Source: a virus. From it: a DNA stretch of 64,000 bases. Of this stretch, positions 9,031 to 60,968 are shown one piece after another. Numbering within the stretch: position 1 is the stretch's first letter; each line of letters starts with the position of its first letter. The notes under the pieces are model-generated. The model searched no databases and was not told the DNA's origin. It saw only the letters and a program-made list of their open reading frames with translations. Location of the stretch: the IMG/VR virus record IMGVR_UViG_3300023278_002686, positions 32,001 to 96,000 of that record; one strand, written 5' to 3'. The translations under genes were made by a program, and so were the position numbers.

Positions 9031-9058
9031 TTGACATTTTAATAAATTTTTATATTAT
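9031..9058 (+). promoter_or_regulatory. sigma70-like promoter of candidate ncRNA
   Basis: TTGACA-N16-TATTAT. Confidence 0.7.
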
Positions 9059-9064
9059 AGTAAT

Positions 9065-9351
9065 ATAAGAAATATATAGTTTTCTAGCCAATTATATATG
9101 GATAAAATTAATAAAACTAAAGGCTTTTAGTAGGTCTAAATCTATACTTTGTTGAAAGTATGCCTCTTACTAAAGTCTAACTGTCTGACTAGATCACTTA
9201 GAATGATAATGGACTCCGAATTATGGATTTTAAGGCGACGATAACTAATAATAATAGGAGCGTAAGAGAAGGTTCGTTGGAAACTTAAAGCATACGATAA
9301 GTGCTCCATTGGGAAAATGCTATTAGAAATAAAACTAATAGCATTTTTTTT
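9065..9351 (+). ncRNA. candidate structured non-coding RNA (~285 nt), family unknown
   Basis: No long + strand ORF in a gene-dense genome, GC-richer, own promoter and terminator, several stems with G-U pairs (9122-9134/9166-9177, 9144-9150/9155-9161, 9257-9263/9301-9307). Confidence 0.55.
9314..9351 (+). terminator. rho-independent terminator
   Basis: AAAATGCTATTAG-aaataaaa-CTAATAGCATTTT plus T tract. Confidence 0.85.
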
Positions 9352-9407
9352 GATAATTTCTTTCTTTCTTATATATATAAGTATATTAAATAAGGAGGAA
9401 TAATAAT

Positions 9408-12964: not shown

Positions 12965-13025
12965 AAGAAAAACATCCTTACTATATAAATAGCTATACTA
13001 ATTAAACTTATATAAAGGATGTTTT

Positions 13026-13796
13026 ATGATTCAAATACTATCAACGATATTATCAATTGGAAAAGATTGGGGTCCTTGGGGAATTATATTTGGTTTTATT
13101 GTGACATATATAACTCATAGAATATCAGATAAAAAACAATCTAAAAAAAATGAAGAATTAAGACAGGTAGAGAAAGAAAATAATAGAAAATACATAGAAA
13201 ATATGTTAGATCTAATTAAAATGATTATAAGAGATACTTTTAAATTAGGTCAAAAGATGAAAAGTATAGAAGATAAAGTGCTTGTTAACCAAAGAAAAGA
13301 ATTAGATGAATGTGGAGATGATATTCAACATAAATTTCTTTCTCGATATGAAAAAGAAATATTACCTAGTTTAGATTTAACTAACGACCAAAAAGATGAT
13401 TTTGTTCGAATTTATAGAATGATTGTATTTCTTGGAGTATCTAAAGGTAAAAAAGAAATGTATGAATTTATTGATAGTACTCTTTCTGATTATTCTTCAG
13501 CTGAATATGAATTACAGAAACAAGATAAATTACAAAAAATATTAGATTTAGTTGAAGAAGTTGAACGAGAAAATTATCCTTCTTTCTTTCCTAGATCTGA
13601 TGTCAATAATGATCATTTATTATTTATAGAAAGAAATAAGACTTATTTAAAAGATCGGATAGATAAGAGTTTTGATACTCTTAAAATTTTTTCAGATAAA
13701 TCTAAAAAAGAAGCTAATGAATTATTAGAAGAGTTAGATAAATTTGAAGAAAAAGCTAAACAAATATTTTTAAGAACTAATATTGACAATTCTTAA
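13026..13796 (+). CDS. N-terminally membrane-anchored late protein (possible holin-like)
   Basis: One TM segment (WGIIFGFIVTYI) then helical soluble domain; ACTATA-N5-A motif at 12980. Confidence 0.5.
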   Translation: MIQILSTILSIGKDWGPWGIIFGFIVTYITHRISDKKQSKKNEELRQVEKENNRKYIENMLDLIKMIIRDTFKLGQKMKSIEDKVLVNQRKELDECGDDIQHKFLSRYEKEILPSLDLTNDQKDDFVRIYRMIVFLGVSKGKKEMYEFIDSTLSDYSSAEYELQKQDKLQKILDLVEEVERENYPSFFPRSDVNNDHLLFIERNKTYLKDRIDKSFDTLKIFSDKSKKEANELLEELDKFEEKAKQIFLRTNIDNS

Positions 13797-43136: not shown

Positions 43137-43865
43137 ATGACTAATATAAATATTGATGATAGACATATTAATGAAATTTTATCAGAAGTAGGATATCCAG
43201 TATTAACTTTAGAAGATATTGAAATAAGTGTAGATCAACTTAAAGAAATAGTAATTATTCCAGTCTTAAGAGAATTTTATTCGTGGTTTCCTATTACTAC
43301 TTTTAATGAATATTCAGTTACATCTACTTTTGCAATAGATTTTCCTGAGACTAATATATTTGGAATATTAGACGCCCGAATTAATACTAATTCATTAGGT
43401 GGAGGAGCAGTCACTTCTAATCCATTTATTAATGAACAATTTGCATATAATAGAATAAGAAAACAACGATATGGAACTCGATATGATTATAATTTAGAAA
43501 TAGCTGACATAATGGTGAGAGCACAGCGAGAGTCAGAACTTAATTCTATTATAGGAAAACGAATTGATGTGTCTATAATGAATAGACAGGTGACTGGTTA
43601 TACGAATGTAGTAGGTAGATTACTTATAGAATGGGCTCATTGGGATGAAAATTTTGAAAACATTCAATATACTAAACAAGATGAAGTAATCAAACTTTGT
43701 AAAGCTAGATTATTAAGAGTAATGGCTATGATTAGAGGTCAACAAAATAGTGATACTCCAGTTCAATTTGACGCCGCTTTATTCTTAGATAGAGCAAAAG
43801 AACTTGAAGAAGAAGTAAAAGAAAAATGGAAAGACTACTCAAAAGTAGTTGTTCGAAGAATGTAA
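43137..43865 (+). CDS. neck/head-completion protein (T4 gp13-like)
   Basis: VGYPVL..EI..DQL N-terminus and C-terminal RAKELEEE; late motif ACTATA TAAAT ATG. Confidence 0.6.
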   Translation: MTNINIDDRHINEILSEVGYPVLTLEDIEISVDQLKEIVIIPVLREFYSWFPITTFNEYSVTSTFAIDFPETNIFGILDARINTNSLGGGAVTSNPFINEQFAYNRIRKQRYGTRYDYNLEIADIMVRAQRESELNSIIGKRIDVSIMNRQVTGYTNVVGRLLIEWAHWDENFENIQYTKQDEVIKLCKARLLRVMAMIRGQQNSDTPVQFDAALFLDRAKELEEEVKEKWKDYSKVVVRRM

Positions 43866-43873
43866 AAGTTTTT

Positions 43874-43901
43874 TTGACATTTTCTTTATTTCATATATTA
43901 T
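43874..43901 (+). promoter_or_regulatory. sigma70-like promoter of small RNA candidate
   Basis: TTGACA-N16-TATTAT directly before a terminator hairpin. Confidence 0.7.
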
Positions 43902-43907
43902 ATTAAT

Positions 43908-43968
43908 ATATTCAATGCGTTGGTATCGGTCTAGACCCTCCAAATCTTCCATACCAACGCTTTTTTTT
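43908..43968 (+). ncRNA. candidate ~60 nt antisense sRNA with anti-SD loop; also a terminator
   Basis: Stem GCGTTGGTAT/ATACCAACGC plus T8; apical loop CCCTCCAAA. Confidence 0.55.
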
Positions 43969-44045
43969 AATTTTTTTAAAAAGTTTTGATGTTTTAGCAA
44001 ACATTTTATATATATTATATATAAGTTAGTTTTGGAGGGCTAAAT

Positions 44046-44732
44046 ATGGCAAGTATAAAATATGATCAAAAGTTTAAAATGATCGAAGCATATTGTAATA
44101 TTATGTTAAATAATCAATTAAATTCTTTAATTATCTACGGTGATGTAGGTATAGGAAAAACCTTTACAGTAAGGAAATCTCTAAAAGATAAGGCAATTTA
44201 TTATTCAGGTGGAGTAAAAGGATCAGAAGAATTAGCAAGAATTCTCTATAATAATAGAGAAGGAAAAACATTAGTTCTAGATGATTTTGACTCTTGTATG
44301 AAAACTAAAGAAATGAAAAATATCTTAAAGACTGCTCTACAAGATGATCATACAAGAATAATTACTTATATGAACTACCGAGTAAATCATAAATTACCTA
44401 AAAAAGAACAAATTCCAGAACAATTTAAATTTACTTCAAGTATTATTTTTGTCTCAAATTCAAAACGAATTGATCCAGCTCTAAGATCTCGTTCTATGTT
44501 AATAGAAATAAGACTTTCTAAAAATGATATGCTACAAAGAATAAAAGATTGTTTTAAAACTTTTATGCCTAAAATTCCTATGCATTTTAAAGAAGAAGTT
44601 TGGAAGTTTATATGGGAAAATAGAGCTAAAATTAAAACAATTGATTTTAGACAATTTAAATTCTCAATCGCAACTCGACTAAAAGAAAATGAACATTGGA
44701 AAGATTGGGTATTATGTAATCTTAATTTTTAG
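44046..44732 (+). CDS. AAA+ ATPase
   Basis: GDVGIGKT, LVLDDFD, IFVSN, ALRSR arginine finger; RBS TTTGGAGGG. Confidence 0.85.
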   Translation: MASIKYDQKFKMIEAYCNIMLNNQLNSLIIYGDVGIGKTFTVRKSLKDKAIYYSGGVKGSEELARILYNNREGKTLVLDDFDSCMKTKEMKNILKTALQDDHTRIITYMNYRVNHKLPKKEQIPEQFKFTSSIIFVSNSKRIDPALRSRSMLIEIRLSKNDMLQRIKDCFKTFMPKIPMHFKEEVWKFIWENRAKIKTIDFRQFKFSIATRLKENEHWKDWVLCNLNF

Positions 44733-47377: not shown

Positions 47378-47743
47378 ATGGCAGCAGTAGCACCTAAATT
47401 ATTAGTAAAATTAACTGGTGAACAGAATGTTACTAAAATAAATAAAGAAATTACATGGACTCTCACATCTAAATTAGAACAAAATTTAGTTCTTAATAAT
47501 GCTGATACTGCTGTAAGAATTACTCTAGCAGATATAGGAACTGATGTAAGATTAGTAGTATTTGAATCTACAGCAGCTTTTACAGTTACAGTTTCTAAAG
47601 ATTCTGAAATTATGGATTTCGAAGTTCAAGATCTATTTATATTTACTCCTTCTGATAGTTTTACAGATGGATTTTCTTATTTTGAAATAACTACAGATAG
47701 TTCTTCAGATCAGACTATCAATGTTAATATATTTGGAGAATAA
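47378..47743 (+). CDS. putative beta-rich structural protein
   Basis: Thr/Val/Ser-rich beta-strand pattern like the tail genes. Confidence 0.5.
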   Translation: MAAVAPKLLVKLTGEQNVTKINKEITWTLTSKLEQNLVLNNADTAVRITLADIGTDVRLVVFESTAAFTVTVSKDSEIMDFEVQDLFIFTPSDSFTDGFSYFEITTDSSSDQTINVNIFGE

Positions 47744-47825
47744 TGTGACTTTTTTAAAAAAAGAGTGTACTTTCTTCAAAAAATATAGTATAATTAATAA
47801 TATAAGTACCTTGGAGGGTAAATAA

Positions 47826-48134
47826 ATGAAAATTTTAAATTTTAATGAAGATAAACAAGCTATTGATGAATTACGAAATTTTATAGAAAAAAACGGATTA
47901 CGAAAACCTTCAGATTGGGATGATCTTAAAGTACAAAATATAAATTCATTATCATCTAATGCGAAAAAATATTTAAAAAGTTTACCTTTTGAGATTGCTA
48001 CTGAAAATCGTCCTTTTAATGTTAAAATTAAAACTGAGAATATGATTCATAAGCTTAAATATAACTATAAACAAGTTTATTTAATAAATACGGAAGGATA
48101 TAATTATCCTAGATATATGGTGAGGATAAAATAA
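47826..48134 (+). CDS. putative internal virion protein
   Basis: MKILNFNE leader; TGTACT-N17-TATAAT promoter at 47766. Confidence 0.6.
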   Translation: MKILNFNEDKQAIDELRNFIEKNGLRKPSDWDDLKVQNINSLSSNAKKYLKSLPFEIATENRPFNVKIKTENMIHKLKYNYKQVYLINTEGYNYPRYMVRIK

Positions 48135-49623: not shown

Positions 49624-49658
49624 TTTATAAAAAATCAAAATACCTTGGAGGTAAATGA

Positions 49659-49910
49659 ATGAAAATTTTAAAAGAAGTTGTTAATCAGATTGATGTAGAT
49701 CTTAGTGATGATAATGCTAAGTTGTTTGTGAAATTATTAAGGAGTGCTGAAAAAAAATATAATCTAGAGATTATAAAAATTAAAATGCATGGTCCTGGTG
49801 GTGGAAATCCAAATGTTTTTTTTAAAGGAAAAGAAAAAGATTTACGTGGATGGTTTGTAAATGAATATATGGGTGATGATGATGAGTTTGACGAGTTTTT
49901 TAATAGATAA
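49659..49910 (+). CDS. putative internal virion protein
   Basis: MKILKE leader; HGPGGGNP motif. Confidence 0.6.
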   Translation: MKILKEVVNQIDVDLSDDNAKLFVKLLRSAEKKYNLEIIKIKMHGPGGGNPNVFFKGKEKDLRGWFVNEYMGDDDEFDEFFNR

Positions 49911-59831: not shown

Positions 59832-60356
59832 ATGGGAATTATAGATGATATATATAATCAAGGTGATGACGCATTACTTGATCAATTTGAAGTGAATGTA
59901 GCTCCTCTATCTGGTGTTATAGACTCTACTAATCTTAAGTTTAGAATACAGACTTTTGATGCTCCTGAAGATAGTCTAGGAAATTATGAAATTAAATATA
60001 AAGGAATTACGGTTCAAAAGTTTAATGGTGATGATACAACTCCTAAGACTCTTTCATTTACATTAAGAGTTAATAAAGATTATTCTATATACAAAAAGTT
60101 TAAAGATTGGATAGATCTTATTAAAAATCCAGATACAGGTAATGAAACTGCTGATATAATTCAAGGAGGAATTCCTGCTTGGAGAACAGATATGACATTT
60201 AACTCAATCGATGCAAGTGGAGCTCTAACTGGATTAGAAACAACGTATAATGGTTGTTGGCCTCAAAGTATTTCAAGTATAAGTTATGATCAAGGATCAG
60301 GTGAACCAGTTAATGTAACAATTACTTGTATGTATCTTAAAAAATTAACAAATTAA
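59832..60356 (+). CDS. tail tube protein
   Basis: Follows sheath; QFEV, FKDW, GCWPQSISSISYD, VTIT. Confidence 0.8.
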   Translation: MGIIDDIYNQGDDALLDQFEVNVAPLSGVIDSTNLKFRIQTFDAPEDSLGNYEIKYKGITVQKFNGDDTTPKTLSFTLRVNKDYSIYKKFKDWIDLIKNPDTGNETADIIQGGIPAWRTDMTFNSIDASGALTGLETTYNGCWPQSISSISYDQGSGEPVNVTITCMYLKKLTN

Positions 60357-60434
60357 TTAATCCTCCTTAATTAATATTTTTAGTCCTTTTGTACAACTAT
60401 ATTTATATAATAGTATGAAAGGACATTTTTTATT

Positions 60435-60968
60435 ATGGGTTTAATTGACGATGTATATAACTTAGGTGACGATGTTATAAATTATCAATTTGATATTTCA
60501 TTTTCTTTAATAGGTATTGTAATAGATGCCATAAATAGATTTCAACAACAACCTGTAGATAGTGATATAAATTTAAGAGTAAATACTTTTAACATTCCTG
60601 AAATAAGTGTTGGTAATAATACAATCAATTATCAAGGTTATCAAATGATAAAACCAAATGGATCTAGTCAGACTCCATATACATTTACATTTGATTTAAG
60701 AATAGATAAACAGTGGAATTATTATACATTATTTCAAACATGGGCTATGTTAGTTTATCGTCCATATATAGGATTATTTTCTCCAGATAAAGTTGGAGGA
60801 ATAGCACCTACTTTAAGAACAACTATAAGAGTAGAATCGAATGGAAAAGGTTGGAGTTTTTTAGGAGCATATCCTAGTACAGTAGGAGGAGTAGCATTTA
60901 GTAAATCAGATAATACTCCAATAGTTGTTCCTATCACAATGACTTTTGCTTCGATGATACCATTTTAA
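60435..60968 (+). CDS. tail tube paralog
   Basis: MGLIDDVYNLGDD vs MGIIDDIYNQGDD; GAYPSTVGGVAF. Confidence 0.75.
   Translation: MGLIDDVYNLGDDVINYQFDISFSLIGIVIDAINRFQQQPVDSDINLRVNTFNIPEISVGNNTINYQGYQMIKPNGSSQTPYTFTFDLRIDKQWNYYTLFQTWAMLVYRPYIGLFSPDKVGGIAPTLRTTIRVESNGKGWSFLGAYPSTVGGVAFSKSDNTPIVVPITMTFASMIPF

Follow-up and report, generated by a model that had tools for sequence, protein, structure and literature searches.

The subject of this study is a short promoter-and-hairpin element that is predicted to encode a small RNA and lies within a 64,000-nucleotide stretch of phage DNA (the window), corresponding to bases 32001-96000 of an IMG/VR virus record (IMGVR_UViG_3300023278_002686; 155,054 bp in total, record 92% complete). 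The element is located between two genes of the + strand. The upstream gene (43137..43865, +) encodes a protein of 242 amino acids (aa) without a family match; it has a late-promoter-like motif directly 5' and closes a long + strand block that stops at the hairpin described below. The downstream gene (44046..44732, +) encodes a 228-aa P-loop ATPase with the Walker A sequence GDVGIGKT, which falls in phrog_1250 and has distant T4-like homologues. Protein searches recovered ATPase homologues at 26-30% identity in many T4-like phages and, together with other features of the locus and genome, this places the virus as a distant, uncultured T4-like phage. The G+C content of the whole phage genome is 26.2%. 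Sites beyond the window are given in genome coordinates or on L023, a part of the same phage genome (L023:717-813 = genome 99716-99812). Genes were called by a simple heuristic that combines open reading frames (ORFs) with Shine-Dalgarno (SD) sequences, which yielded 261 ORFs including a few spurious ones, such as the minus-strand ORF 43839-44000.

Promoter, hairpin, and loop complementarity upstream of the ATPase gene

An earlier note on this DNA had described a TTGACA/TATTAT promoter that leads directly into a 10-bp stem followed by T8, and both features are present where it had placed them. The promoter, P1 (43874..43901, +), is composed of TTGACA at 43874-43879, a 16-nt spacer, and TATTAT at 43896-43901, and it carries the extended -10 sequence TATATTAT. 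It agrees with 11 of 12 positions of a sigma-70-type consensus and is the top + strand match within the 4 kb scanned. Moreover, its signature (TTGACA-N14/15-TATATTAT) occurs three times in the window, where 0.04 occurrences are expected, and in seven exact copies genome-wide. Two other copies of this family match P1 over 38 nt at ~85% identity. P1 is a member of a promoter family, designated class 1, and not an isolated AT-rich look-alike.

The seven class-1 copies are found in two kinds of settings. Four are situated directly 5' of genes, and the remaining three (P1, window 9031, and L023 813-717 on the minus strand) lead into ORF-free stretches that are closed by a terminator. The unit at window 9031-9351 is 285 nt long with its terminator at 9344. 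The unit at L023:717-813 (minus) is wedged between convergent genes and repeats the layout seen at P1, with a gene stop, a promoter (TTGACA-14-TATATTAT), a large-loop hairpin (12-bp stem and 12-nt loop), and a T-run (T7); the predicted RNA is 63 nt. A 10-nt match between its loop and TTGTGTAAAT sites was considered and rejected as being at chance level, given an estimate of ~0.65 expected matches per 10-mer. Two of the four gene-proximal copies, both on the minus strand outside the window (genome 148108-148142 and 15376-15411), have an ATG only 6-7 nt past the -10 box, so that these host-type promoters are expected to give leaderless mRNAs.

The hairpin downstream of P1 (43917..43960, +), recovered both by folding and in a census of terminator-like hairpins, begins 15 bases past TATTAT. 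Its arms, GCGTTGGTAT(C)GG at 43917-43929 and CCATACCAACGC at 43949-43960, form the 10 bp described previously plus a C bulge and 2 further bp that complete the stem, for a total of 12 bp including 7 G-C pairs, and the T8 tail (43961..43968, +) follows directly 3'. The predicted minimum free energy (MFE) of the hairpin is -16.9 kcal/mol (z -5.45), and none of 200 shuffled sequences was equally stable. Among the 15 terminator-like hairpins in the 155-kb genome, this one has the highest stability. The stem encloses a 19-nt loop (43930-43948), in which a weak inner stem of 3 bp (AGA/UCU) may leave a 9-nt apical loop, CCCUCCAAA, at 43936..43944 (+). Every base of this apical 9-mer, which has the character of an anti-SD sequence, is predicted to be unpaired with a probability of at least 0.9, and the ensemble fold assigns a cost of only 0.02 kcal/mol to opening it.

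Intrinsic terminators usually have loops of 3-8 nt. The loop observed here, whether counted as 19 nt or as 9 nt if the inner stem forms, is longer than this, and the hairpin was missed by our first terminator scan only because that scan was restricted to loops of 3-8 nt. The apical loops of the other 14 terminator-like hairpins are mostly 3-8 nt.

Because promoter and terminator are both present by sequence, the unit is predicted to yield a 61-nt transcript (43908..43968, +), whose 5' end is placed 7 nt past the -10 box and whose 3' end is placed in U8. The earlier statement that this RNA contains no ORF does not hold strictly: an ATG at 43915 opens a frame of 24 codons that overlaps the predicted RNA and extends beyond the terminator to 43989. 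This frame has no SD sequence. A permissive search of Rfam returned no more than two snoRNA matches, both at chance level (E > 3), and ARAGORN found no tRNA or tmRNA.

The loop also carries the feature that had first drawn attention to the locus. Nucleotides 43936-43944 (CCCTCCAAA) are the exact reverse complement, at nine of nine positions, of TTTGGAGGG at 44031..44039 (+), which is the SD region of the ATPase gene located 6 nt 5' of its ATG at 44046. Beyond these two, the 9-mer has no further occurrence in the window, and a repeat search lengthens the complementary stretch to 11 of 12 positions (43936-43947 with 44028-44039). For a random 19-nt loop of genome composition, the probability of pairing this well with its own start region is 7e-5, and over all 15 terminator-like hairpins it is ~1e-3. 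We also scanned the whole genome for upstream complements of start regions. Four genes reached this score, where 0.125 are expected from shuffled sequences; they include the ATPase locus, one spurious ORF whose match is a terminator stem, and the genes at window 13026 and genome 144529. The complementarity between the loop and the SD region of the ATPase gene is confirmed and is unlikely to be due to chance. A longer, imperfect duplex between the entire 5' half of the RNA and the start region (31 bp, -26 kcal/mol by RNAfold, covering the SD sequence, the AUG, and six codons) was rejected as being at chance level, as 16-19% of shuffles match it (p 0.16-0.19) when the 9-mer is fixed and its flanks are shuffled.

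A class of GGAGGG ribosome-binding sites

The earlier note had pointed out that the ribosome-binding sites (RBSs) of the genes at 47826 (TTGGAGGGT) and 49659 (TTGGAGG) are of the same type as that of the ATPase gene, and had proposed a small regulon. Both sites are as described, and the candidate target set can now be widened, on sequence criteria, to 11 GGAGGG-type genes. GGAGGG is found within 20 nt 5' of the start of 11 of the 261 ORFs, compared with 54 of 261 for AAGGAG. All 11 GGAGGG genes are preceded by 45 or more intergenic nucleotides, versus 28% of the other ORFs, which identifies the GGAGGG genes as first cistrons.

The predicted duplexes between the loop and the 11 GGAGGG start regions range from -14.7 to -20.9 kcal/mol, relative to a mean of -7.1 kcal/mol (standard deviation 3.3) over the 261 ORFs. 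On the same 11 sites, an anti-SD sequence of the 16S type reaches only -9.5 to -12.1 kcal/mol. When the cost of opening both partners is included, the net energies for the 11 sites are -6 to -14 kcal/mol, with 10 of the 11 at -9 kcal/mol or better. The class consensus, TTGGAGGGT, is matched by the loop. Its flanks (TT before GGAGGG and T after) bring no gain in pairing with 16S RNA, yet they too are matched by the loop, which reads A-CCCUCC-AA. Three start regions (genome 100166, 108409, and 112564) could form 10-13 contiguous bp with the loop and therefore exceed the neighboring ATPase gene in this respect.

Within the window, the TTGGAGGGT site of the gene at 47826-48134 (47811..47819, +) lies downstream of a second type of promoter (GTGTAC at 47765) and has a predicted loop duplex of -16.6 kcal/mol. 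The TTGGAGG site of the gene at 49659-49910 (49645..49651, +) is a weaker predicted partner at -11.5 kcal/mol. The top predicted partner of the loop is the start region of L023:1167-1430, a gene that heads a rightward early-type block and whose 87-aa product matches PF17420, 'superinfection exclusion gene product 17' (E 7e-27). Another member of the class, L023:11147-11809 (RBS AAGGAGGG), encodes a sigma-factor-like protein of 220 aa that matches phrog_1740 with E 3e-8 and Pfam models Sigma70_r2 and r4 below their cut-offs; based on these matches, the protein is a candidate phage sigma factor for a non-host promoter class. No family was found for the remaining GGAGGG-class proteins.

The second promoter type, class 2, consists of a T-run/A-run, AGTGTACTTT, a spacer of ~18 nt, and TGTATA(A/T)T, and can be written AGTGTACTTT...TGTATAAT. 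Five of the 11 GGAGGG genes lie behind it. The five copies (window 47740-47800; L023:1050-1140, 9320-9400, and 13220-13300) are each followed by a GGAGGG RBS, and two of them, at L023 ~1075-1102, point apart and thereby form a long inverted repeat. Upstream of class-2 promoters is a T/A-tract, whose T-run also aligns with the T8 tail of the hairpin downstream of P1. Class-2 promoters could require a phage factor.

Note that one other hairpin in the window has a sense-strand intergenic CCUCC in its loop. It is a weak, A/U-only hairpin of 9 bp at 60345-60375, just past the stop of the gene at 59832-60356, with UCCUCC in a 6-nt loop that complements RBSs of the GGAGGATTAA type (e.g., window 32246 and, on the minus strand, genome 150771).

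Possible functions of the element

The most likely reading of the locus, which we hold tentatively, is that it encodes an RNA of ~61 nt that occludes GGAGGG-type RBSs in trans and, in read-through transcripts, also in cis. P1, being of the host sigma-70 type, would initiate transcription near 43908, and the hairpin and U8 would efficiently end it at 43961-43968 to give a single-hairpin RNA that would accumulate. The stable stem would keep the 9-nt apical loop CCCUCCAAA open for pairing with (U)UUGGAGGG(U) in the SD region of the ATPase mRNA and of ~10 other phage mRNAs, all of them predicted to be first cistrons of early-type transcription units. Such pairing would bar the 30S ribosomal subunit and lower translation of the targets, and the same loop could act in cis on transcripts that read through the terminator. 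Of the earlier proposal of a trans-acting anti-SD repressor, what the sequence supports is the promoter-to-terminator unit and the exposed anti-SD loop; explanations that invoke pairing in cis or a plain terminator compete with the rest. If RNAs acting in trans and pairing that operates in cis only are taken together, the loop/SD pairing is probably functional. The accompanying suggestion of an antitoxin-like RNA for the ATPase gene was set aside, since the product is an ordinary P-loop protein with T4-like homologues in which no toxin-like feature is seen.

Several observations weigh against an RNA that acts in trans. Its gene adjoins one of its own targets, which is needless for a purely trans-acting regulator. 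The core of the match, CCUCC, complements any strong SD sequence, so specificity would depend on 3-5 A/U flank positions. The leaders of the targets share ancestry and are partly homologous promoter and leader cassettes, so that the 11 target matches are not independent. The loop of the second promoter-to-hairpin unit, L023:717-813, lacks an anti-SD sequence, which means that units of this layout need not be anti-SD regulators. Furthermore, no homologue of the element was recovered from any collection searched, although records very close to the window may be missing from these collections: megablast and blastn searches of 50,697 phage records found no match or only AT-rich fragments resembling promoters, and pattern scans produced chance matches that lack the hairpin, 2 in IMG/VR and 13 in metagenome contigs. 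Searches for related loci by means of the ATPase and of the upstream protein found nothing. The closest ATPase homologue identified by protein search is 64% identical and resides on a 3-kb contig, and the next several are 40-46% identical; the element is absent from the loci of these relatives, whose upstream regions differ. In one distant relative, with an ATPase 46% identical, a terminator stem (L007:860-905) formed by GACCCTCC and GGAGGGTC is followed by T6. The 8-mer GACCCTCC is part of the loop in our phage and is paired within the stem in that relative.

The strongest competing account dispenses with pairing altogether. The hairpin and T8 would serve only as a boundary, within a composite cassette of the PeSL type, that insulates the ATPase block from the 34-kb block upstream, with P1 and a second promoter-like site downstream of the hairpin, P2, as cassette promoter elements and the complementarity functionless. 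The hairpin is well positioned for this task, lying 52 nt past the upstream stop codon, and no earlier terminator-like hairpin is present on the + strand since genome 41344; as the first such structure after 34 kb, it closes the 34-kb block, and a boundary role alone could account for its presence. PeSL cassettes of T4-type phages contain similar parts with a variable stem-loop position that includes sites after the -10 box (PMC2839356). The chance-level pairing outside the core and the failure to find the element in any relative also agree with a boundary. What fits poorly is the loop. Its match to the start region would be an improbable coincidence, both per loop and over the terminator-like hairpins of the genome, and a length of 19 nt is atypical for an efficient intrinsic terminator, such that the loop looks kept for something. 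In addition, P1 would start upstream of the stem-loop and hence terminate its own transcript, unlike a PeSL promoter that drives the next gene, and the stem-loop is neither repeated in the genome nor built on a polyG/polyC stem. Despite these objections, we regard a boundary without further function as a considerable, if doubtful, possibility.

Alternatively, the pairing might operate in cis only, as a promoter-dependent gate. Transcripts that read through the hairpin, initiated either at P1 or at the late-promoter-like motif 5' of 43137, would go untranslated because the anti-SD sequence pairs with the SD sequence, transcripts from P2 would be translated, and the P1 RNA would be a by-product. 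This mechanism is documented for T4 (PMC3014915), and the phage examined here demonstrably hides SD sequences in cis. Three clear gates of the T4 gene-e layout are present in its genome, each with an anti-SD arm, ACTATA in the loop, an SD arm, and an ATG: window 12965-13028 (gene 13026), window 60384-60437 (gene 60435, tail-tube-like), and, outside the window on the minus strand, genome 144529-144580. The first and third were found by the upstream-complement scan, and the second by the terminator census and folding. In these hairpins of 10-12 bp, the anti-SD arm is set against the SD arm, and only transcripts starting at the late-promoter-like ACTATA would expose the RBS, by analogy with T4; the tail-tube-like product of gene 60435 fits late-only translation. 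The same logic could apply in cis at the ATPase locus, where the anti-SD sequence adjoins its matching SD sequence and the parts are in the order of anti-SD, promoter-like site, and SD. The MFE structure of the 168-nt leader indeed pairs 43936-43944 with 44031-44039 (-34.4 kcal/mol, z -2.6, versus -32.9 kcal/mol when the terminator hairpin is enforced).

Other features of the locus are difficult to reconcile with such a gate. The arms are 86 nt apart, compared with 17-35 nt in the three clear gates, and the anti-SD sequence is enclosed within the loop of a second stable hairpin, which would have to open, or contribute to a pseudoknot, for pairing in cis. No ACTATA late motif is found between the arms. 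The separate promoter-like site that the earlier note had placed at 43986 is present as the candidate promoter P2 (43986..44018, +; TTGATG, 17 nt, and TATATA, overlapping TATATTAT), but it is weak at 8 of 12 positions and was not among the sites reported by the promoter scan. The region aligns with the core of the class-2 promoters and leaders, yet it lacks the GTGTAC box of the class that it resembles and is not of the late type. The U8 terminator should leave little read-through. Moreover, a gate would not explain why a consensus promoter that it does not need is located 15 nt before the hairpin, or what makes three remote genes better predicted partners of the loop than the ATPase gene. Overall, we consider a function restricted to cis unlikely, although the three gates found in this genome have strengthened it and make it a serious rival to an RNA that acts in trans.

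Other roles for a P1 transcript appear very improbable, even when taken jointly. The RNA could be part of a leader-peptide attenuator, with the terminator being melted as ribosomes translate the 24 codons that begin at ATG 43915; this frame (43915-43989) crosses the hairpin, but with no SD sequence and a 7-nt leader it is neither leaderless nor SD-led. A replication origin using an RNA primer or R-loop, like oriF and oriG of T4, could be suggested by a promoter followed by an AT-rich tract; against this, there is no skew change and no repeat array, and the whole genome is 26% GC. Finally, the loop might be a relic, namely a minus-strand RBS that once belonged to a pair of divergent genes. Such a pair, at genome 99801/100166, does yield exactly this kind of inverted repeat, CCCTCC...GGAGGG, with its halves ~120 nt apart. 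At the ATPase locus, however, no minus-strand start codon occurs 5-10 nt after GGAGGG, and exact placement of a relic in the apex of a strong hairpin is not expected.

Relation to known regulators and implications

The known system that is closest in operation to an anti-SD RNA of this kind is the c4 antisense RNA of the immI operon in phages P1 and P7, whose loops complement the ribosome-binding region of the gene that follows and thereby prevent its translation (reviewed in PMC12197685). Like the predicted RNA, c4 is short, phage-encoded, and located immediately 5' of its target on the same strand. Unlike it, c4 is processed from the transcript of its own target, uses two loops, and serves one immunity operon of a temperate phage; the element described here has one loop, a dedicated promoter and terminator, and ~11 matching sites in a T4-like phage. 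No sequence similarity to c4 was found.

Small RNAs (sRNAs) with C-rich loops are known from low-GC and other Gram-positive bacteria, where loop motifs of S. aureus RNAIII, RsaE/RoxS, and M. tuberculosis 6C pair with G-rich SD sequences and arrest translation. In RNAIII, the hairpins that do so include the terminator hairpin H14, whose loop pairs with SD regions of mRNAs. The resemblance lies in the use of an unpaired C-rich loop against the SD sequences of several mRNAs. Those sRNAs are encoded by the host, measure 90-500 nt, and contain several hairpins, whereas the RNA predicted here would be phage-encoded, ~61 nt long, limited to one hairpin, and directed at targets of its own phage.

For the T4 genes e, soc, 49, and I-TevI, a long early transcript does not permit translation, but a late transcript initiated within the hairpin does (PMC3014915). 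The arrangement at the ATPase locus is similar in that an upstream anti-SD sequence can form a helix with the SD sequence and a promoter-like site lies between the two. It differs in that the anti-SD sequence is 86 nt away in the loop of a separate terminator hairpin, a consensus promoter precedes it, and the intervening site is weak and non-late. The PeSL cassettes of phages RB49 and phi1 comprise a stop codon, an AT-rich stretch, a sigma-70-type early promoter, a terminator stem-loop, an SD sequence, and an ATG (PMC2839356), and all of these parts are present within 43866-44048. PeSLs, however, are repeated cassettes of ~100 bp with G-run/C-run stems, in which the stem-loop is usually within or before the promoter and is escaped by the cassette's own transcripts. 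Here, only the 38-nt promoter part is repeated, and the stem-loop is unique, follows the start site, has no G-run/C-run stem, and carries an anti-SD loop.

Short terminated transcripts are also familiar from phage lambda. The 6S RNA of PR'-tR' arises from a constitutive promoter that directs transcription into a nearby terminator and is a substrate for Q antitermination with no pairing role, and oop RNA is antisense to cII. The predicted RNA shares the form of these transcripts, but neither a Q-like factor nor an antisense overlap is evident at the locus.

In T4-type phages, the RegB nuclease cuts GGAG in early ribosome-binding sites and RegA acts as a repressor. To our knowledge, the translational shut-off of early genes in these phages is known through such proteins only. 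Searches with Pfam models detected no homologues of RegA, RegB, or MotA in the phage studied here, which is weak evidence of their absence because distant homologues could be missed and the record is 92% complete. A more ambitious proposal for the 61-nt RNA would make it a class-wide translational switch, made from a host-type promoter, whose loop of 9-10 nt reads the non-canonical UU-GGAGGG-U flanks at the first cistrons of ~11 early-type units, the sigma-factor-like and superinfection-exclusion-like genes among them, and which times the early-to-late transition. RNA would then take on in this phage a task that T4 assigns to proteins; we consider this somewhat unlikely. Judged from this single sequence, the mechanism would be a variant of known anti-SD RNA regulation.

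If the hairpin is a terminator only, then the locus is an ordinary one. If the loop does act on the GGAGGG-type sites, however, it would explain the odd, conserved RBS of one gene class, whose flanks do not aid pairing with 16S RNA. In size, the RNA would rank with the smallest known regulatory RNAs. It would also represent an RNA-based counterpart of RegB and RegA.

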